Below, piece after piece: positions 7,087 through 63,294 of a DNA stretch of 64,000 nt; the stretch's first letter is position 1, and each line of letters starts with the position of its first letter. A model generated the notes under the pieces. The model did no database searches, had not been told where the DNA came from, and saw nothing but the letters and a program-made list of their open reading frames with translations. A program made the translations under genes and the position numbers. Origin of the DNA: Octopus vulgaris (taxonomy: Eukaryota); assembly GCA_951406725.2 (NCBI GenBank), contig OX597818.1, positions 87,792,001 through 87,856,000 of the forward strand, given 5' to 3'.

Positions 7087-7123
7087 TGTTTCCGAAGATG
7101 AGATGTGCTCGAAATGTAAAGCA
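7087..7123 (+). ncRNA. Minimal hammerhead-like motif (variant)
   Basis: TGTTT-CCGAAGA-T-GAG ATGTG CTC-GAA-ATGT-A-AAGCA. Confidence 0.5.
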
Positions 7124-7206
7124 GCAACTCTTTAGTTGAAAGCTGTAAAACTTTTATATATTTCGGGTGCAAGGGCCCATTTTCAGAAGAGTCCAAAGAA
7201 AAAATA

Positions 7207-8213
7207 TATATCCTCTCATAATAACAAACTGTTAAATATTAATACATTTACTAATACTAACATTAATTTAGCTAATACCATCCAACCCTCTAGAAATATT
7301 AATAACAAGGTTATTGTATCTGAAGTCAATTCCAATAGAATTAAATTTATGTCAAGTAACTCTAAGATTAAAAATTCTATATACCAGTGTATAATCAGTA
7401 CTCGTAATAAAGTACGATTTTACATTGGAAGTACATCGTTAGAGTTATCTAAAAGAATTTCTATCCATTACTCAACATTTAGGGATAGAAATAAACGGAA
7501 TAGTACCGGTCTCAGCAAACTGATTTGGGATTTAAAAGACCACAATGAACAATTTCATTTAGAATGGTTGATCCTCTCAATTTCAATACCATATGACAAA
7601 GGCAAGAAATTCTGTCTTCTCTGCAATTCTGAGCTATTTTTCATTATTTTTTCTAAAAATACTCTAGTAAACACGGTTATAGAACGAGCATACAGATGTA
7701 AGCATTGGCAGAAACATACATTTAGTGCATATAAGTAGTCTCTATCATTATATATAATTTAAACTTTAATTTCCTTTATATTTAACATTCACTATTAATA
7801 TCCCTACTCTTTCTGTTAGCTACTTATGACGTTATATCATATAACGTTTTTTTAAACAATATTAATAGCGTTCTGTCTATCGCTATACAAATCCATCATT
7901 TTTTGCTAAAATGTCGTATTGACGAGTTTCGTTTTTTTCACTTTCCCGAAGAGAAGATTGCATTGTTTATACCATTTATTCTTTTGAATAGTATCAGTGG
8001 AATTTTCGAAACATGTGTAGAAAGTAAAAATACTTGTTTAAACCTGCGTTAACTCCATTTTTTATTCATATTATTCAAAATATTCAACGTAAACACGAAG
8101 TTTCAACCTTTATAAAAAAGGAGTTACAATATCTTTACTTGTGAGATTTTGCTGCCCTGGTAACTATTTATTTATTTTTCCTTGTTAATTGTTAACAAGG
8201 TAAAAATACACTC

Positions 8214-8222
<9 letters not shown>
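7207..8222 (+). mobile_element. 5'-truncated PLE of a related subfamily (GIY-YIG domain + pLTR)
   Basis: ISSHNNKLLN..VSEVNSNRIKFMSSNSKIKNSIYQC..FYIGST..CLLCNSE..CKHWQKH (stop at 7738) is paralogous to the C-terminus of the 17237 ORF. Followed by an HHR, a donor site and (TA)n. Confidence 0.9.
7933..8030 (+). ncRNA. Hammerhead ribozyme, CCGAAGA core variant
   Basis: TTTTTCACTTTC-CCGAAGA-GAAGATTGCATTG...CAGTGGAATTTTC-GAA-ACATGTGT-A-GAAAGTAAAAA. Confidence 0.75.
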
Positions 8223-8850: not shown

Positions 8851-8904
8851 GCATTCTGATGATGTCTCCCACAACGATTGGTAAACAGAAACGATCGTAA
8901 ATGT
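8851..8904 (+). ncRNA. Compact hammerhead ribozyme, intact core
   Basis: GCATT-CTGATGA-TGT...ACA-GAA-ACGATCGT-A-AATGT. Palindromic stem III, GUA site, just downstream of a (TA)n tract. Confidence 0.8.
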
Positions 8905-15616: not shown

Positions 15617-15957
15617 TATGAGGGATGCTGAAAAGTTACTGCTTTTAAGGTTGTCGGGAAAGAACTGGTTGGAAGCCCTACCTTTCGAGTTCTTTTACAA
15701 AGCTTAGAGAAATTGAAGGACCGTTGCAATAAGTGTGGATCTGAGAGGAGAATAAGTTGAATAAAATCATAATTCACTGATCCTCCTGTATTTTCTTTTA
15801 CCTAAAGCCAAGATGATCAGTTGATTACGATTTTATTCAGCATATTCTCCTATCAGATTCATACACTTATCGCAACGGTCCTTCAATTTTTCTAAGCTCT
15901 GTAAAAGCATTCGAAAGGTTGGGCCTCCGACCAGTTCTTTCGTTCAGAACCCCTCGT
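15617..15957. mobile_element. Mariner-derived fold-back MITE
   Basis: ~100-bp imperfect inverted arms (15658-15755 / 15843-15941) encoding LEKLKDRCNKC..LRGE (mariner C-terminus-like); ends GAGGG..TGAA / TTCA..CCCTC. Confidence 0.6.
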
Positions 15958-16577: not shown

Positions 16578-16676
16578 ATTCCTTTATTCTCGACATGTTT
16601 CGAAGGCTGCATATTCCTAATTTCGAAGGAATAAGGGGTGCATTATGCCGCCTTCTCATCAGGAAAAACAAGGAAT
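16578..16676 (-). ncRNA. Type I hammerhead ribozyme in the PLE 3' pLTR, intact core
   Basis: Minus strand: ATTCCTTGTTTTTC-CTGATGA-GAAGGCGGCATA...TATGCAGCCTTC-GAA-ACATGT-C-GAGAATAAAGGAAT. Stems I and II pair, palindromic minimal stem III, GUC cleavage triplet. Confidence 0.9.
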
Positions 16677-17236: not shown

Positions 17237-19883
17237 TCATTCATATGAGTGAAAGGTGTGTTTCTGCCAGTGCATGCACCTATAGGATTTTTCGACCATT
17301 GTATTTATTAAAGGGACTTTGGCGAACAATATATGGAAAAGTTCGGAATTACAGACGCCACAAAATGTTCTGCCCTTATCAAACGGAAAGGATACAGACA
17401 ATATGGACCATTTCAGCTTGAAAGTTGTATTGCTGTCCTTAAGACGCCAAACTAATTTACTTAGTCCTATGCTTTGTTGTTTTCTCTTATCTCGGAAAGT
17501 TGAATAATGATTGGAGATCCTCTGGGCTAATTTAGAAGTAGTTTCCCCAATGTAGAAGAAGACATCGGTACCGGAAGAAATTTTACACTGGTAAATGGAA
17601 TTTCTAATTTTGGAATTGCTGGATAAGAACTTTAATCTGTTAGGGTTTACCTCCGAGACTAAGACGGAGTTTTTATTGTTATGATTGCTGTTAATATTAT
17701 TGCTAGCATTGACCACAATACTATTCCTATTATTATTATTACTATTAATTGTACTATCGTCGGCAATTTCCCTGACTATAGGAATGCTGGTGTTGTTATC
17801 ATCAATACTACCACTGTTATTAGAAATGCTGTCGTTATTACCACTAACACTACCACTGTTAATAATCCGACTAATATTATTATTAATATTACTATTGTTA
17901 ATGCCAACACTGCTATGAATGTTGCTATTATCAATACTATTTCTATTATTATTATTATTATTGTATGTTTGGTTGGAATTGGTAAGGGCAGTGTCGTAAC
18001 TCCCGGGTGATGAGTCCTTATTTAGCAGCTTGTTATTATGGGAGGCAATGATCTGCGATAGATTTCTAGTGTTAGAGAACACAATCCTTACCTTATGTGA
18101 ATTGATAGTAGAGTAATACCTAGAATTCCTGGGAAAGTTCCTAGCTACGGCTTCACGGAACTGTAAAGGGAGGTTTGACCTGATTTGTTTCCCGAAATGT
18201 ATGACAAACCAGATATAGTCTTTTGTGGACTTAGAATAGTTCAGAGTGTTACCATTTACATTAAAGGGAGTATTTCTGTGCTGGAGAATTGGTGTTGGTT
18301 GCCGATTGCCTCCCCTGGTCCGTAAATTATTTTTGTTAAGTATAGTGGTGTCGACGTTGTTAGAGCTGAAATCATTATTTACATTATTTCTATTGTTATT
18401 AGTTTTCTTATCCTGAGAAGCATATATTGGTTTAGAATGGGCCAGGTCTATATATACTTTATCTCTATAACCGGCTTTTGACATGGCGGCGTTATAAAAT
18501 TCCGCTTTTTGGTTAAAGATGTCAACATTAGCAGATAAATTTGATAGTCTTAAGGAAATATTTTTAACTAAATTATCGGTGATATTTTTGGCATGGTTAC
18601 TGAAAATGCTGATATATTTAAAATTAGTAGAAGGCTTATGATAAGGGAAGTAAGAATTATTCTGCAGATTTAGGGTAACATCTAAGAAGTTGGCTTTAGT
18701 TAATTCGTCGTCGAAAACTATGCTCAAGCCCATTCTGCTAAAAAATCTAGCTAATCTGTTTTTAGTCTTCTGTATCATATTGTTCGGAGCATTCTGTAGG
18801 TAAAGTAGACAATCGTCTCGATACAGACCGCCGCAGATGTCCGGGAATTGGTCGGCCAATTCATAGAGAATATAGATTCCGACCAAATCGGCTATCTGGG
18901 CGCTATCTGCACTTCCCATTAGCACATCGAACGCGTTGGGGGTATCCCTGCGGACCCATAACTTATCATCGAACTGTATGAAGGATTTTCTAGCCGCTAA
19001 AATTACATTAATTTCCTCCCTTGAGAGGCCTGCCTTATTATGTGCGTGCCATAGGGCCTTATTGAGTACACTAGGGTTGATCGAAGGGTAGAAACTAGAT
19101 ATATTGAATTGAATGAATTTTGTGTTGTCCTTATTAGTAATAGAAGTAAACCACTCTACGACTTGAGTGGAGTTAGACCATAGGCTGAGTTTTAACTTAT
19201 TGATTAATATAGGTATGTATTTATCTAAAATGTACTTAGTAAGGATACCGATGTCGGAACTAGAGGGGCATATGAGCCTTAATGCCGGGTTGGTATGAAA
19301 GTTTGGTTTATGGTCCTTAACGATGAATCTTGGTTTTCTGGGGTTCAGCGGTTGTGTTTTCATTTGTAATCCATATGTTTCCATGATTTTATTAATTTCT
19401 AAGTTGGCTTGTCTGAGTGTATTCCTACTTGATGTCCTGTAATTCTTATGTATTTCTTTCTTGAGCATTTCTAAATACTGGTTCTTTGCTAGCTTATATG
19501 TGTTCCTGGTTTTATCCGATTGGACCAGGATAGCGTCTAAACTGTTTATATCTTTGATGACTTTATCGAGGTATTTGAGGTGTTTATTCCTAAGGGGCGA
19601 TTTACGGAATTTAATGGCCCTTACGATGTCCCACAGATCATCTTCAAATTTCTTCAGTCTGGGATGGATTAGGTGGAGAGGTTCCCCTCGACTTAAATAA
19701 CTTTTTATATTCGAAAGATGTGTCAATACTGTTCCGTTTTATGTCCTCATTATCGTGGAAGAAGGCGAGCCATCTAATGCGGTTGATAAATGCATTTGTT
19801 TTATTAACAATTTCCTTAAGGAAGGTTTCTTTTGGTGGTATTGGTATGTCCTTAAGGGATGCGTTAATGTCGAACAACTCCAT
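17237..19883 (-). pseudogene. PLE reverse transcriptase + GIY-YIG endonuclease ORF, frameshifted and with a mutated catalytic Asp
   Basis: N-terminus MELFDINASLKDIPIP..RIRWLAFF..FKS..PPN (19883-~19670) continues after a 1-nt shift as HPRLKKFEDDL. Motifs: DKTRN, KDHK..RLICP, FIQFNISSFYPSI (D>N), FDVLMGSADSAQIADLVG, GLYRDD, FLDVTL, SIYQC..FYIGET..R..H, CGVCNSE..CMH. Confidence 0.92.
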
Positions 19884-19920
19884 TTGCGGTATCGGTTAAG
19901 GTAGCAGGATCTCAAGGAGA

Positions 19921-19985
19921 CTGTATATGAATAATTGAGTAGTTGAATGAATTATCTTATTATGGATAATTCGGTTAACCGATAC
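19921..19985 (-). other. Predicted 65-nt spliceosomal intron in the PLE 5' leader
   Basis: CCCAG|GTATCG...TACTCAAT...TCATATACAG| ending 37 nt before the ATG. Donor context recurs at 53860 (-) and 8160 (+). Retained 5' introns are a known PLE trait. Confidence 0.7.
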
Positions 19986-20164
19986 CTGGGTAGCAAATTC
20001 ACGTCAGAAAAACACGGTTGAAGCTACATGCCAAGGGCAGAGATCACGTGCTTTCGTGTGGAAATTTGTGTTTATAGACTGCCATATTAGTATGGCGATA
20101 ACTATTAATATCCAGTAACGCTGCCGTAATCTCCTTTAGAGAGACTTAGTAATTTTAATATTTC

Positions 20165-26620: not shown

Positions 26621-27244
26621 TTTTTTTTTTTTGTTATTTTGTGGAGAATGTAAGTAATATTACAACCAGTCTTTTTGAACTCATACTGTAAGATTATCTT
26701 AACGGTTCGGCAAAATAAAACGGTAGACTAAGTACTAGGCTTGAAAAAAAATTAAGAAAACAACCCACTGTGGTCAGTGTATTCGATGAAAACATTTAAG
26801 GTGGTGACCCAGCATGAACGCAGTCACTTATGTTTACAGTAAGAGTGACATATTACCATTGCAATTAGAAAACAAAATCTCTCTCTAGGGATGTTTATAA
26901 TTAAACAAAAATCAAACAAGGAAGATAAGTCCAATAAAATCAAACTGGGATACAATATAGATAAACATAGTTTAAAATAGATTCGGTCATTGATATATAT
27001 ATATGTATGTATATTCTGTAGTGTCTGGGAAGAGTCATTCTCTTTTGGTGCCTTATAGTTTAATACACCGGTAAAATTTTCCCTTATTTCTTTTTTATTT
27101 TTCTAAAATTTTCGTTGCGTCTTGTAACCTAAGGTACCAAAAGAGAATGACTCTCCCCAGACACAACAGAATATATACTTCAACACACGAACCCACATAA
27201 AGCAAACCAAATCAAAAAACGAAATACATACATACATACATACA

Positions 27245-27289: not shown

Positions 27290-28052
27290 TAGAAAGGTTT
27301 TGGCCAGTATTGGCCCAGGCCATGTCTAACTTAATAGCACCACCTGGCGAAGTTTTTCAATTCAGGATTTGGGCACCGAGGCCCATTCGAGCAGAGAGTT
27401 ATTGTTTGTGGAGACATATCCGGGTGTGGGTGGTTTGTCCGGGACTGTTTGAAAGAATTTGTCCAAAGACTTCTTGAATTTTGTGTGGTCAGTTTCTGTT
27501 TTGACGTGTCCTGGTGTAATGTTGAAGAGAGCGGGTCCAATTGAGGTGAAATAATTGTGCCGTATTGTCGTTATGTGATGCGATTTAGATTTTTGTTGTG
27601 GACGGTTGGCACGTGGTGCAAGCCTTGGATGTATTTTGAAGGTGATGCCAACGTCATTCGGACAGTGCTGATGGAATATTTTCCACATCATACCGATAAC
27701 GTAGCGTTCACGGCGTCGTTGGAATGAATACAGTTTCAGCTTCTCTAGTCTACCCCAGTAGTCAAGGTCTGACATGCCATCTATCTTTTTTGTGATTGAC
27801 CTTTGGGAAGCTTCAATTCTCATAATATTTTGTTTTGTGTATGGAGACCACAGTGGACAGCAGTATTCATGGTGGAGTCGGCAAAAGTGGAGAAGAGAAG
27901 GATAATAGTGTGGGAATCTCTCGACTGGAAGGTTCTGAGAATCCAGGAACACATTCTGCGGGCCATTTCAACTTTGCTGCTTATATGTGTAGCCCAGCTT
28001 ATGTTGTTGTCCACTGTTACTCCCAAGTCTCTGATGTTGTTGGACGCCATGA
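27290..28052 (-). mobile_element. 3' portion of a CR1-clade LINE
   Basis: RDLGVTVDNNISW..H, EYCCPLWSPY, LKLYSFQRRRERY, GPALFN.. over two frames. Confidence 0.85.
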
Positions 28053-31709: not shown

Positions 31710-31742
<33 letters not shown>

Positions 31743-31918
31743 TTTATAATTAGGGTTCAGCAAAGATTTGCTTCACCACATACCGAAGTTTAGAAATAGC
31801 AGTCAAAAAATCTTAGCTATTCCCTTTACTTTAAAAGGGGCTCCCAGAAAAACCAAAGTACTTGAAAACAATCCACGCAGGCAAAAGGGAAAAATAACGA
31901 AAATCAATCGAGATTAGG

Positions 31919-34696: not shown

Positions 34697-35155
34697 TCTA
34701 TCTGTACATCTTGACAATGGCCAGCGTGTATATTTCACAGAAGACAATGCTCGAATCGTAGTTCTGAATCCATGAGTAACCACTTTGACAGCTTTGACAA
34801 ATTATGCCAATGTGATCTGTTTGCCCGAACACTGTTGTATGTAGAGGTCGCCATGTACTATACCTGGGCACACAATAAATGGAACAGACGCAAGCAAGGA
34901 ACATGCATTGAGGGCTGGGAAGAAGATGCTGTCTTCAGAAGTGGGACCATCGAGCGGGTGTACACTGTGCACCCTAATCAGCAGGAGTGCTTCTTTCTGC
35001 AACTACTGTTACACACTGTCAGAGGTCCTGTATCATTCACAGACTTTCGAAGACACAATGGGAAGTCTGCACGACCTATAGAGAAGCCTGCACCAAATAT
35101 GGACTACTGGAGGACGATGCTCACTGGGACCAGTCACTGGAGGAGGCAGCAATCA
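34697..35155 (+). pseudogene. Helitron Rep-helicase fragment
   Basis: VHLDNGQRVYF, FARTLLYVEV..YYTW, RVYTVHPNQQECFFLQLLLHTVRGPVSF, TYREACTKYGLLEDD. Confidence 0.88.
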
Positions 35156-38100
35156 GCACAAAGGAAGAACAAAAATGTTGTTTATCAAGAAGCTCTGCAA
35201 ATTTAATAAGGTTCACCAAAACATCAAGTATTTATTTTTTAACTGTAATATTTGTAAGTGTTGTAAATCTGAGTTCAAATTCCGCCGTGGTCGACTTTGC
35301 CTTTCTTCCTTTCGGGATCGATAAATAAAATACCATTTTAGTATTGGGGTCGATGTAATCGATTTGACCCCTCCTCACAAATTTCAGGACTTGCGCTTAT
35401 AGCAGAAAGGAGTATTATATACAATAAGGAGTTTTAAATATACTCCAAAAGATTAAAGTAATTTGAACTCTGCATGTGTATGACTTTTCTTCACTGTATA
35501 TTAACCTAAATTTGAAAATGGTAGAAAAAAAGCAGATTTAGAATTATTGATATAAGACATAGTTATAAGTTATAAATATATCTCCATTAAAAACGGTGAA
35601 GGCTTTCGGTCCCTGTCCAGTTGTCATAATTTTGGCAAAAATGAGCTGTACCTGTAATTCAAAGAGCCATCCTTGTAGCATTCTGTGTCACGCTGAATCG
35701 CTCTGAGAACTTCGTTAAGGGTACGTGTGTCTGTAGAGTGCTATGCCACTTGCACGTTAATTTCATGAGCAGGTTGTGCCATTGATCGGATCAACTGAGG
35801 CACTCGTCGCAACCGATGAAGTGCCATCACTTGTTTAAATAAAGTTAGATTAATGATGTTTAACTTTATCATTAATAACACATATATTGCTATAGCTGGT
35901 AGGATATTTAAAAAAATTAAGGGTGTTCCGATGGGTTATAATTGTAACCCTTTATTAGATGACATATTTATTTTCGTGTGAGATTAGTTTTCTTAAGGAT
36001 TTATACAAACGGAAAAGAAATAGATTTACTTAAGTAGCTTAGTGGTTGCTGCAAATACATCGGTGATATTTTTATTCCTACTTATAATTATTTAGAAAAT
36101 TTGTCTGGGAAAATATATTCAGAAGATTTCGTAGCTAATAAAAGTGGTGTCACGGCAGATGTGTTAATTATTTGGATGTTAAAGTAGTTTATGTGGATAA
36201 AAAAGGTTGTGACTAGCATTTATAATAGAGTTGAAAACTTTAATTTTCGTATTGCATCTTTGCCCTGAACATTAAATAGTATGCAGTTAAGATAGAGTAC
36301 AATGTTTTCTCCAGTTAAGGTTTTAAGTACGTTATGATTATAAATGAGGTTAGTATACTTTTGGAAAGAGTTAAAATGTTGATGCTGCATATGGAGAAAG
36401 CAAAGATACATTAAGTTGCTAGTTAAATGTTTAACTGTTGCTTGGGGAGCCATAATGACATTTTGAGGCAATTTAAGGTAATTTCTTGTTTATGCCTTCG
36501 TAAGAATCTTCGGAATAATTAGTTTGAATTAGCGTTAATAGTAACGTAATTGTTTTATAATTTGGGGGTAGAACGTTACTTCCTCTAGAGAGTAATCTTT
36601 GGATTTTTGCTAATACTTTAGTTTCAAATTTTTGGTACAAGGCAATAAAGTTTGGAGAAGTGGGTAAATTGATTTCATCGACTCCAGTGTTCAACTGGTA
36701 CTTATTTTATCGACTCCGAAAGGAGGAAAGGCAAAGTCGACCTCAGTGGAATTGGAACTCAGAATGCAAAAGTCGGACGAAATGCTGCTAAGTATTTTAC
36801 CCGGTGTGCTAACGGTTCTGCAAACTTCTGCTTATACATTACGATCGGTATTTTGGCGGTGAACAGCAGTTGTGGTACCTTGTTCGTGAAGACCATGCTA
36901 TTTACATAATGAATATTTTCGTAATGGTTCGTTTGTTGCAGTCAATTTTAAGTTTTTCTCATGTGTTATAATGATTTTCTTTTTAAGAAAATATTGGTTT
37001 AAATATATTTCCTATAATTAAAGTATCACGGTATCGACCAGACTGTCGGATGTTATTATACATCGCTGGACACAATGCACTTAGCATTGTTTTAACGTTC
37101 GAATGAACGCCAGCCCACTGGCTTGGCGAGCAAGTCAACCTTCCCACTGATCGGAAGGCTTTTGTCACAGTGACTGGACATAAATTGAAGTGTTTTGCTC
37201 AAGAACGTAATGCACCGCCCAGTCCGGTCCAGGAATCGAACCCATGATCTAGTGAACCTGGGCTCAATACTCTAACCACTAGACCACACGCCTTCACTAA
37301 GATGTGTATATTTAATCCTTTCTATTACACAAGGCACAAGGCCCGAAGTTTGTGGGGAGGGGACTAGTCGATTACATCGACCCCAGAATATCACTGGTAC
37401 TTAATTTATCAACCCCTAAAGGATGAAAGGCAAAGTTGCCCTCGGCGGAATTTGAACTCAGAACGTAGCGACGGGCGAAATACCGCTAAGCATTTCGTCC
37501 AGCGTGCTAACGACTCTGCCAGCGCACAGCCTTTATTATTTTTTTTTTATTTATGCGCCCTTTTTAAGCCTAGCCAGGCTCATAGGCTCGGTTTCCCGGT
37601 TTCTGTGGTGTATGTGTTCCCTCCAACTGGACGGGACGCCAGTCCATCGCAGCGTTACTCAAGAAACAGGAAGATTGAGAGAAAGTTGGGCGAAAGAGTA
37701 CAACAGGAGTCGCCACCACCCCCTGCCGGAGCATCGTGGAGCTTTTAGGTGTTTTCGGTCTGGGAATCGAAACCGCGATCCTCCTACCGCGAGTCCACTG
37801 CCCTCACCACTGGGCTATTGCGCCTCCACCTTTAGTGTATATTTAATATCTATAAGTCTATATATGGTTTATTCCCTTGTGTTGTTTTGAGCTGATTGAT
37901 ACTTAGAAGTGAAAGCGATAGGTTATTTCGCTGATTTGCATTTAGTTCGTTTTAATTATGCTTCAAAGGTCGCTCGGTGCTAACGTCTGTTCATTGATGT
38001 TCTTTAATTAATCTATATATACTTACGGTTATAGAGTGATTATGTATATATATTTACGGTTATAGAGTGATTATGCCTTCGATTATTATCATTTTCCGTT

Positions 38101-53737: not shown

Positions 53738-53808
<71 letters not shown>

Positions 53809-54012
53809 AAATGGATAAATGAATTATCTTGTTACGGATTATTCAAATTATAACCGATACCTGGGTAGCAAAAATCACAACAGAAAAATCACGGTTGAGG
53901 TTACGACCATGGGGTATCGCAACCGTGCCTCAGTGCGGATAATTGAAGTTTTATATATTTAGTGAGGGAAGAAATGGAGCTGAACGAAGATTTTACAAAA
54001 TTCCTTTTTTTT

Positions 54013-54098
54013 ATTTTCTACACATGTTTCAAAGGCTGCAAATTCCCTAATTCGGATTGAATAAGGAGACCATTTTGCAGCTTTCTCTTCGGGAAAAT
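54013..54098 (-). ncRNA. Hammerhead ribozyme, left arm (CCGAAGA variant)
   Basis: ATTTTC-CCGAAGA-GAAAGCTGCAAA...TTTGCAGCCTTT-GAA-ACATGTGT-A-GAAAAT. Confidence 0.75.
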
Positions 54099-54426
54099 CC
54101 ACGAACTTAAATCTCCAAACAAATGCGCAGCAAGCTTTTCGAACAAACGCTCCCTAGGAGCCCATGGTATGAATGGCACAAAACTGTCTCTCAATATGCG
54201 TTGACGTCAGGGTGGGTGAAGGCCGACGAAAAAGTCCGTTGAGATAATTCGATAATTAACCGGAATTTGACCTCGAATTATCTCAACGGACTTTTTCGTC
54301 GGCCTTCACCCACCCTGACGTCAACGCATATTGAGAGACAGTTTTGTGCCATTCATACCATGGGCTCCTAGGGAGCGTTTGTTCGAAAAGCTTGCTGCGC
54401 ATTTGTTTGGAGATTTAAGTTCCTGG

Positions 54427-54512
54427 ATTTTCCTGAAGAGAAAACTGCAAAATGGTCTCCTTATTCAAACCGAATTAGGGAATTTGCAGCCTTTGTAACA
54501 TGTGTAGAAAAT
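54427..54512 (+). ncRNA. Hammerhead ribozyme, right arm (GAAA mutated to GTAA)
   Basis: ATTTTC-CTGAAGA-GAAAACTGCAAA...TTTGCAGCCTTT-GTA-ACATGTGT-A-GAAAAT. Confidence 0.7.
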
Positions 54513-54566
54513 AATAAAAAGGAATTTTGTAAAATCTTCGTTCAGCTCCATTTCTTCCCTCACTAA

Positions 54567-54638
<72 letters not shown>

Positions 54639-55896: not shown

Positions 55897-55899
<3 letters not shown>

Positions 55900-56240
55900 G
55901 TAAATAAGTAAAAGGGATGTACATGTATCAATAAATTACGGCCGTTTCAAACAGCACCATTTAATTGATCAATGAAAACATTACCTCAATTTGAAATAAA
56001 TCGCTCTCTTCAGAAGCAGATGACCTTATTGATTTTAAAAACAAATGATAAACTATTTTTACCAAATTTATATCAATAATAGAAACCAAAATAATTACAT
56101 TGTTTCTTTATGTTACATGTGTGACAGCAATGTTATTTCTGTGCCAAACTGATGTAATGTTTCCTTGGATCAATTAAATGGAGTCGCTTGAAACGGCCGC
56201 AATGTATTGACACTTGTACATCCTTGTTACTTATTTACAT
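55897..56240. repeat. Inverted repeat (~95-bp arms) containing a degenerate hammerhead, likely a PLE pLTR pair
   Basis: 55897-55992 pairs with 56147-56240. Minus strand CTGAAGA (56013-56007)...GAA-ACGGCCGT-A; adjacent to (TA)n. Confidence 0.55.
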
Positions 56241-56359
56241 TCTGTTCATCCATCTTGGAGCTTTGCTGACGATACTGAACTGGCAAGGTGCCTCAATTTA
56301 AGATCCTAATGCAACTGAATCTTAAATGTGTTATATATATGTATGTATGTATATATATG

Positions 56360-57369: not shown

Positions 57370-58296
57370 TCAATAAATTCTATAATTATGAGTATAATTA
57401 TAATTAGGGTTCAGCAAAATGTGCTTCACCACATACCGAAATTTAGAAATAGCAGTTAAAACTACTATTCTGCTACCATAAGATATCTCCCAGACAGTAA
57501 TACTCAACAACCCACGTAGGTAAAGAGAAAAAAAATAACGAATCCACCCGGCTCTTATTAACTGTATACGCGCTTCGGAGTTAGAGAAACGTGAAAAATG
57601 TAAAACCATATTTCTACTCACTCATTCTCTTCATCAGCACAGTATTTCAAATTTCAAATTTTAGAGCATTGGTAATTAACATACGTATTTGACCAAGTGC
57701 CATCAAACAGCATATATCCAAAGACCAGTTCTTCCGAATTCAAACAGACGAATGAGATCTAGTATTCCTCCTCTCTCACCCACGTGTGAAAACGTGTAAA
57801 AATTCCGCAGAAACTTCAGTTTACTATCAGGAGAGAATTATATTATCAATAATAATAAAGGGCAAAATTAATTAATTAATTAAATGATTAATTAATAATT
57901 AATAATTTTACCAAGTAGTTCGGTATGTTAAAAGAACCATTATCGGTAAACTTATACAAAAAGTCTAAGCTATACAAAAATTATGAGTATAATTATAATT
58001 AGAGTTCAGCAAAATTTGGTTCACCACATACCAAAATTTAGAAATAGCAGTTAAGACTACTATTCTACTTCCATAAAACATCACCCAGACAGCAATACTC
58101 AACAACTCACGCAGGTAAAGAGAAAAAAAAATAACGAATCCTGCTTGAGTTATTGAGTATTGCTGTCTGGGAGATATCTTATGGTAGTAGAATAGCAGTT
58201 TTAACTGCTATTTCTAAATTTCGGTATGTGGTGAGCAAATTTTGCTGAACCCTAATTATAATTATACTCATAATTATAGAAGTTTTGTATAAGTTT
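57370..58296. mobile_element. Second PLE-type pLTR family: two direct copies plus one inverted copy
   Basis: 57380-57545 and 57980-58140 are direct copies; 58141-58296 is inverted. Another copy at 31745-31920. Contains an HHR and a GTATGT..CTAAT..TAG intron. Confidence 0.7.
57562..57642 (-). ncRNA. Hammerhead ribozyme with one core mutation
   Basis: CTGTG-CTGATGA-AGAG...CTCC-GAA-GCGCGT-A-TACAG. Confidence 0.65.
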
Positions 58297-58499: not shown

Positions 58500-58835
<336 letters not shown>

Positions 58836-60372: not shown

Positions 60373-60680
60373 CCCGTAAAATGTTTATTCTACCCCTTTA
60401 AATCCTGATATCATTTTTATTCTGTATGTAAACATATATACATTCTGTATTTTAAACGTATATATATATATATATATATGACCGCGTGTGTACCGTTGGC
60501 GATTTTTTACCTCTGTCTTCCCTTCTCCTATGTTTCCAACGAAGAGCTCCGCTCGAAAGTTAAACCTTCCTTCTTTCCTTCTTTCCTGAGCGTCTAATAA
60601 TACTATATTTGTTCCACGTCCTCGCGTTGTTGTGTTTTTTTGTGCTTTGTTGTTTGGATTAACTTTATATATATGTATAT

Positions 60681-60769
<89 letters not shown>

Positions 60770-62734: not shown

Positions 62735-63294
62735 TTGGGTTGTCCGGAAAGTTCGTGCCAATTTTTAAAGGAAAGAAAAAGGCCAATAAATTCTTGCCAT
62801 TACATTTTTAATCAACTAAATATGAACCATTTTGTTGCACAATGCGTCTCCATCTTCCCTTTAATTTGAAAATACCCTCTTCCCAGAATTGAGGTGGTTT
62901 CATCACAAAGAATTCATCAAGGTATCTTTTTACGTCATCCAACGATTTGAAATTTTTACTGTCAAGACTACTCTGCGGAGACCTGAATAAGTGGAAATCC
63001 GAAGGAGCAATATCTGGTGAATATGGAGGGTGGGGTAACACATCCCAGCCGAGCTGCAGCAATTTTTGTCTGGTTCCCAAAGCATCAAGTACCGAAAATG
63101 AACTTTCTTATCTTCTTTTTAAGGGGTTACAGAATTAACACAGGTTATAGGAACATAAACCTTCTTCCACGAAAAGATAGCTTAAACTGTGCTCTAAATG
63201 GAGGTGGAGTGAAATCCTATTTTATAGACTCAACCATTTTCTAAAATAAGTCGAAAGGTAAGCTACTTCGGCACGAACTTTCCGGACAATCCAC
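62735..63294 (-). mobile_element. Internally deleted mariner (DD34D, mellifera-like)
   Basis: TIRs TTGGGTTGTCCGGAAAGTTCGTGCC, TA TSDs. N-terminal EDKKVHFRYLMLW joined to LGWDVLPHPPYSPDIAPSDFHLF...NGSYLVD*. Confidence 0.9.

Follow-up and report, generated by a model that had tools for sequence, protein, structure and literature searches.

A donor-complementary helix in an octopus PLE, reinterpreted as a probable part of a leader fold

The Hydra clade of Penelope-like elements (PLEs; Craig et al. 2021, PMC8557442) shares with the families described below RWK/DKT motifs, a C-terminal GIY-YIG endonuclease, a hammerhead in the pLTR, a (TA)n target and inverted 5' copies, and differs from them in its canonical leader motif, which the window families lack, and in its shorter hammerhead stem II. 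An arrangement of inverted and direct partial pLTRs is usual in PLEs (PMC8557442, Fig. 2 legend). The published leader of Hydra-1_Ajap, read by eye in the supplement of the same paper, has both of the GAGCACT motifs that are analysed here; the text consulted describes neither a double hairpin, nor a helix, nor a tie of either to insertion ends, and the word "hairpin" occurs 0 times in the supplement text.

Two better characterized elements bear on how such a leader may be used. PAc, the Poseidon element of Anolis (Frangieh et al. 2024, PMC11167929), starts reverse transcription in vitro at two internal RNA sites, with a tail between them, and a dimer is predicted for its protein; the starts fall in an AC-rich stem-loop inside the ORF, at a position without homology to the target. 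In Hydra-clade leaders, unlike PAc, the putative sites lie in the leader, beside TATA tracts that match (TA)n and beside a repeated hairpin that is conserved in sequence. In Penelope of Drosophila virilis (PMC2377424), a short 5' UTR intron is placed at the junction between pLTR and leader, as is the putative intron at 58 kb, and splicing has been demonstrated there; its retention needs an unspliced or antisense template (PMC2377424; PMC3846280), and the accessible text of these papers describes no helix complementary to the donor. Non-LTR retrozymes (PMC7229834; bioRxiv 10.64898/2026.07.22.740005) are non-coding, hammerhead-bearing units derived from PLEs, as is the locus at 58 kb, and are recognized by at least two tandem hammerhead units and by circular RNA, whereas the 58-kb locus has one hammerhead, a period of 595 nt, an inverted 5' copy and no array. 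In the article and supplement text searched, neither a leader fold nor a donor-complementary helix was found described for PLEs.

The 58-kb locus and its complementary arms

The window is a stretch of 64,000 nt from Octopus vulgaris (GCA_951406725.2, contig OX597818.1, positions 87,792,001 to 87,856,000), and all positions below are counted within it. Read on the minus strand, the 58-kb locus consists of an inverted partial pLTR, a direct partial pLTR, some 330 nt in which no coding signal is seen, a hammerhead and a second pLTR. Its parts, together with a relative at 31.8 kb, are as follows (a slash marks the donor-like junction).

58140..58296, plus strand: inverted 5' partial pLTR copy, the typical head-to-head structure of PLEs (PMC8557442, Fig. 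2 legend)
57979..58141, minus strand: partial pLTR copy in direct orientation, truncated at the inversion junction 58141
58041..58067, minus strand: predicted hairpin 5' of the upstream arm
58026..58035, minus strand: upstream helix arm with donor-like TTTG/GTATGT (TTCG/GTATGT in most copies)
57970..58031, minus strand: intron-like loop segment with TATA tracts, a putative intron
57938..57940, minus strand: ATG that opens only 10 codons, with no Hydra-clade ORF after it
57919..57928, minus strand: downstream helix arm ACATACCGAA (the "anti-donor")
57645..57860, minus strand: non-coding interior, likely 3' UTR, also present, with less depth, in further copies
57561..57643, minus strand: minimal type I hammerhead ribozyme with a stem II region of 54 nt
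57384..57545, minus strand: 3' pLTR and tail, terminating within the loop equivalent and adjoining (TA)n
31740..31915, minus strand: pLTR of a diverged subfamily, with identical upstream arm and an end in (TA)n within the loop

The locus is a non-coding, rearranged copy of a PLE. A minimal type I hammerhead within a pLTR, partial tandem pLTRs, an inverted 5' copy and a tail are all present, and the ends at 57.4 and 31.8 kb adjoin the (TA)n target of the Hydra clade, while an ORF for RT and GIY-YIG endonuclease is absent from this copy, none of whose frames matches a Hydra-clade profile. In viral contigs, 0 matches to the Hydra profiles or to the family pattern, and no autonomous partner, were found. 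The hammerhead core reads GAAG at 57573, where the aligned contigs have GAAA. In the 31.8-kb subfamily the stem of the hairpin at 58041..58067 is kept and its loop differs, and the 3' ends of the copies at 57.4 and 31.8 kb both fall inside the equivalent of the 58-kb loop segment (57970..58031).

An earlier note on this DNA had reported that the 10-mer ACATACCGAA at 57928-57919 (minus strand) is complementary to a donor context, TTCGGTATGT, and both letters and coordinates hold: the context is perfect at 57431-57440, 58220-58229 and 31778-31787, and has one mismatch, giving a G-U pair, at 58026-58035. The complement is beyond chance, in that a 10-nt complement covering the donor and lying at most 100 nt downstream arises in only 5 of 5000 dinucleotide shuffles. 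When any perfect long-range stem of at least 10 bp in the 161-nt region is counted, it arises in 7 of 300 shuffles, and the longest Watson-Crick stem of the 58-kb copy itself, 8 bp, is matched or exceeded in 74 of 300. The region as a whole has a folding z value of -3.19 (2/200 shuffles), and the predicted pair probabilities of the helix are 0.83-1.0 for nine of the ten pairs and 0.57 for the outermost one. TACCGA at 57944-57949 (minus strand), about 20 nt before the 10-mer, is likewise complementary to the upstream arm, over 6 nt, and could compete with the 10-mer.

Copies of the family were drawn from the window itself and from contigs of four runs, which were aligned to 57540-58140. In run X2 the summed contig depth is 126-214k over 57918-57959 and 216-323k at the donor, and contigs of X12, X17 and X7 bridge the region, one from X7, which carries a second species label, spanning 57920-58051. 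Since the downstream arm occurs in bridging contigs and at a depth near that of the donor, the 10-mer is not a local inversion private to this copy, which would have undone the proposal; the complement is genuine and is present in further copies of the repeat, across contigs of other runs. Over the stretch that contains both arms, depth exceeds that of most of the unit by a factor of roughly ten or more. At position 58033, 281,534 of a depth of 315,205 in X2 has the letter that turns the G-U pair into a Watson-Crick pair, and among the 40 variant rows listed of 136 none falls in the downstream arm (57919-57928). The changes observed in the 10-bp helix are one-sided, with no two-sided compensatory change known.

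A leader fold in the Hydra clade

Other PLE families in the window permit comparison of this layout with that of elements whose affiliation is given by their protein.

17237..19883, minus strand: Hydra-clade PLE ORF with RT and GIY-YIG endonuclease, frameshift near codon 70
19975..19986, minus strand: upstream arm of the 19.9-kb family, GGTATCGGTTAA, with GCTACC directly 5'
19888..19899, minus strand: downstream arm of the 19.9-kb family, TTAACCGATACC, with GCTACC 5' and lying 4 nt before the ATG
53800..54092, minus strand: pLTR related to the 19.9-kb family, with hammerhead and upstream arm, terminating in (AT)n immediately ahead of the second-hairpin position
7136..8222, plus strand: third related family, with endonuclease fragment, hammerhead and an end in (TA)n

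By its protein, the 19.9-kb family is a Hydra-clade PLE, and its copy here is nearly full-length: the ORF has 424 related proteins at E ≤ 1e-20, with the best match from Argonauta (together with the composition of the DNA, a sign of a likely cephalopod host), its N-terminus matches the Hydra-clade profile at E 5e-17, and it contains RWL, DKT, CGVC and CMH, corresponding to the RWK-like, DKT, CxxC and CxH motifs of the clade. The CxCX5C linker, present in the best match, P0001, is absent from this ORF, where an extended Asn-rich region takes its place, resembling the N-rich inserts of rotifer PLEs (PMC3846280). Pfam returned 0 families for six proteins, a result that is uninformative because even this clear PLE ORF scored none. 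The two arms form a 12-bp helix that arises in 0 of 5000 shuffles (of a simpler doublet type) and enclose an intron-like segment of 65 nt (19985-19921), whose "acceptor" TATACAG leads straight to a TCTC…GAGA hairpin. The downstream arm ends close to the ORF start, as in the clade-wide fold, whereas the 58-kb copy has no ORF. In the published leader of Hydra-1_Obim, as inspected by eye in the supplement, AGGT follows GCTACC, and no AG stands before the ATG.

The hammerheads at 7946-8019, 16592-16662, 54019-54092 and 57567-57637 have a long stem II region of 54-55 nt, compared with 10-25 nt in relatives. Another hammerhead repeat family, with short stem II, a (TA)n end and copies 84% identical, occupies 58595-58740 (plus strand) and 60459-60769, and hammerhead-like motifs of other families occur at 8856-8899 and 7092-7147 (both plus strand), the second directly preceding a truncated endonuclease ORF. 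At 53952-54573 there is a near-perfect inverted repeat of 620 nt (96%), consisting of the 3' region of a PLE and an inverted copy of it, and decayed self-inverted, MITE-like repeats lie at 55897-56241, 15658-15941 and 27010-27175. ORF remnants at 34715-35206, 62808-63107 and 27362-27967 resemble proteins of Helitron, mariner and LINE elements, though Pfam gives no match. No Rfam family reaches its gathering score among the best 150 of 376 matches in the window, all of which come from microsatellite-rich DNA.

With an N-terminal profile, 80 metagenome loci (the best 80 of 130 confirmed) and 6 loci from genome contigs were collected. The latter six (L081-L086) are Hydra-clade sequences in prokaryotic genome records, likely contamination from host animals. 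In the 170-200 nt that separate hammerhead and start codon, the motif GCTC-(3-22 nt)-GAGCACT occurs twice, at a spacing of 57-83 nt. When this pattern is applied strictly to the 86 loci, both motifs are found in 48, one in 23 and none in 8, the start being not located in the remaining 7; a covariance model gives 36 matches in the other 38 loci, variants included. Leaders with the double hairpin are exemplified by L008:341-460, L048:1596-1712 and L054:339-457. Each hairpin has a TATA-like tract before it and one arm of a long-range helix after it, and the helix ends near the start codon. The first hairpin covaries, with U-A in 22 and C-G in 7 of 30 sequences, and compensatory variants of hairpin stems (GCAC/GTGC; ACTC/GAGT) are seen at L085:3382-3509 and L067:150-280. 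None of the 20 loci (of 86) submitted to Rfam gave a match at the gathering score.

The helix is formed between the 24 nt that follow hairpin 1 and the 24 nt that follow hairpin 2, and this duplex outperforms shuffled sequences for 21 of the 33 non-redundant elements, compared with 1 of 33 for a coding control; it is not universal, as 12 of the 33 miss p < 0.05. In a register test without fitting (n = 30), the Watson-Crick fraction is 0.35-0.375 at three adjacent offsets, summing to 18-20, against 0.25-0.27, a peak reached in 0 of 300 permutations at each when 20 offsets were scanned. For these 30 rows L018, L028 and L051, close relatives by eye, were omitted; L039, whose chosen motif pair is at a second copy rather than at the match itself, was dropped. 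The pairing in fixed register exists despite an identity of only 28% (0.28, n = 30) between upstream and downstream arms. A held-out set of 20 loci, of which 2 were skipped and 9 were too similar, left 9 elements, and with the register fixed beforehand these gave 0.312 against 0.258±0.019 (3/2000), 3 of the 9 passing singly. Related elements in these tests are not independent of one another. Single-sequence folds contain at least five pairs of the helix in 21 of 32 loci. RNAalifold applied to a MAFFT alignment finds hairpin 1 only, as the arms cannot be aligned on sequence, and the covariance model was consequently built without the helix.

The fold is tied to the places where inserted copies end. 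Among 49 alignment ends listed, 10 enter a TA tract, which corresponds to 8 distinct sites, and all 8 lie 0-6 nt before a hairpin, five at the first and three at the second; most of the remaining 39 ends reflect points of divergence or matches to repeats, and four of the 39 fall at the same positions as TA-flanked ends. Of 32 loci, 20 have TATA or ATAT within the 10 nt that precede hairpin 1 and 14 have it likewise ahead of hairpin 2, compared with 1-2 of 32 in three control segments (L081, which has no upstream sequence, was left out of this test and of the single-sequence folds). In the 58-kb family, too, a long-range helix closes a loop that holds the insertion ends.

Readings of the 58-kb helix

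The DNA similarity of the 58-kb family to the other window families has z about 0, the covariance model finds neither the 58-kb nor the 19.9-kb family, and the best motif score is 5.5 bits, compared with a training minimum of 11.5, with no pair of GCTC…GAGCACT copies detected. Several weak ways (two or three) of mapping the 58-kb hairpins onto the canonical ones were considered and none was adopted. The equivalence of the 58-kb family therefore rests on layout, not on sequence: a hammerhead lies upstream, the upstream arm is preceded by a hairpin, and the helix closes a loop with TATA tracts and insertion ends. The unusually long stem II region that its hammerhead shares with those at 19.9, 53.8 and 8 kb also speaks for a common kind. 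It follows that the claim is one of working like the Hydra-clade fold, not of being a member of it. On balance, the 58-kb 10-mer is likely to be the downstream arm of a PLE helix at the junction between terminal repeat and leader, of the same kind as that fold.

The earlier note had read the same complement as part of a splicing device. It described a 62-nt segment GTATGT…TATAG at 58031-57970 (minus strand) followed by an ATG at 57940, both of which are present, downstream of a pLTR bearing a hammerhead; the hammerhead is in fact part of the downstream copy, at 57643-57561, and the pLTR copy immediately upstream is cut at 58141. Of the two splice signals, the donor-like site is there, with 6/9 agreement to consensus at 58 kb, but the acceptor, TTTTTGTATAG, is peculiar to the 58-kb copy. 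At its position the copies at 57.4 and 58.2 kb have CATAATTATAG/AA and no pyrimidine tract, and bridging contigs have 8-11 gaps across the region, with listed deletions at 57965-57978. No spliced joint is seen among the 15 listed of 29 joints, drawn from contigs only, with two runs guessed as RNA, and contigs of these two runs traverse the acceptor region unspliced, which counts neither for nor against splicing. The acceptor-like AG coincides, in both window families, with a TATA-plus-G tract of the kind that precedes the hairpins where insertions end. With a copy-specific acceptor and an ATG that opens only 10 codons, the intron reading is weak. What stands of the note's second family with the same architecture is a pairing that is real, shared by copies and recurrent as a layout in PLEs; its interpretation as a donor/anti-donor device is not supported, as Hydra-clade relatives pair the same position of the helix without an equal donor. 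Upstream arms that hold a donor of at least 6/9 number 0 of 33 in the clade (3/33 by a looser rule), from which it follows that the helix does not need a donor and predates any donor.

A genuine 5' leader intron, with its donor masked by the downstream complement such that part of the RNA remains unspliced as transposition template, is nevertheless worth weighing, even if it is unlikely. In the 58-kb and 19.9-kb families the upstream arm has G/GTA, and the family at 8 kb has it (G/GTAACT) at the position aligned with that arm (8160). The three donors score 6, 6 and 7 of 9, where the background is 0.08-0.20 sites of this quality per 26 nt, two of these three families having been selected for donor overlap. 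The helix covers the donor at high predicted probability, CTAAT stands 24-28 nt before an AG, and leader introns are documented in Penelope of Drosophila, whose RNA occurs in both spliced and unspliced form (PMC2377424), and in Chlamys-3 (PMC8557442). The clade, however, keeps the helix in the 33 elements without such a donor, and has its acceptor-like TATA-plus-G tracts before hairpins in donor-less relatives as well; the acceptor named at 58 kb belongs to one copy, with no ORF after it, and the families were chosen because a stem overlaps a donor. Because of the G/GTA at or aligned with the upstream arm in three families, masking of a donor is a possible added role of the helix in the octopus host lineage.

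A neutral relic, that is, one short inversion by template switching in the founder of the family, copied ever since, is somewhat less probable still. PLEs often make inverted or palindromic junctions (PMC3846280), and the 58-kb locus has one at 58140; one-sided change in the stem is what such a relic would show, and 7 of 300 region shuffles contain some stem of at least 10 bp. A relic, on the other hand, does not account for both arms lying in the stretch of high depth, nor for an upstream arm that is identical in a subfamily with a diverged upstream part, nor for the same layout being built from unrelated sequence at 19.9 kb (12 bp, 0/5000) and across the clade. Very improbable, finally, is a by-product of coding, in which ACATACC would represent the codons Asn-Ile-Pro of the KNIP motif at the N-terminus of the clade. 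One frame does read GSFNIPNYLVKLL, and S-x-K-N-I-P is nearly invariant in the clade, but the frame has no start codon, its best whole-sequence E against the clade profiles is 0.54, compared with 1e-17 for the 19.9-kb control, and the 19.9-kb arm precedes the ATG instead of lying in the DIP codons.

A probable role at the internal start of reverse transcription

The feature is real and is reinterpreted here as a probable part of a PLE leader fold that is undescribed in the literature searched. Since the 58-kb helix is likely of the same kind as the one joining hairpins that mark insertion ends, it likely helps to position the internal start of reverse transcription and does not mainly serve to mask a splice site.

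Consider how such a leader might work. The transcript would fold, and the RT/endonuclease would bind both hairpins; a hairpin before each strand of the helix makes the layout two-fold symmetric, which would suit a protein dimer. The enzyme would then nick (TA)n, and the nicked end would anneal to a TATA tract, as the TATA tracts at the insertion ends suggest, with copying started there. A choice between the two sites would give the optional "tail" of PLEs.

An extended version, which we regard as doubtful, lets the two-fold scaffold of the Hydra clade (TATA tract, hairpin and helix strand, each present twice) seat an RT dimer and set both start sites, with a leader intron of the host lineage overlaid on it. 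A transcript would then either fold, hide its donor and serve as template, or be spliced, lose an arm together with a start site, and serve as mRNA. If true, scaffold and intron overlaid in this manner would be a structural answer to the problem of intron retention in retroelements, and if the donor overlap in the octopus lineage is real, the choice of splicing would be tied to the choice of template.

These results matter for how PLEs choose their RNA template, start internally, acquire an optional tail and keep introns. The clade-wide double GCTC…GAGCACT hairpin, with its covarying helix and TATA tracts at the ends (L001-L086), is a candidate RNA family; short and tied to exact insertion ends, it offers defined residues and base pairs for mutation in an in vitro assay that already exists, and a sequence marker for the boundaries of Hydra-clade elements.
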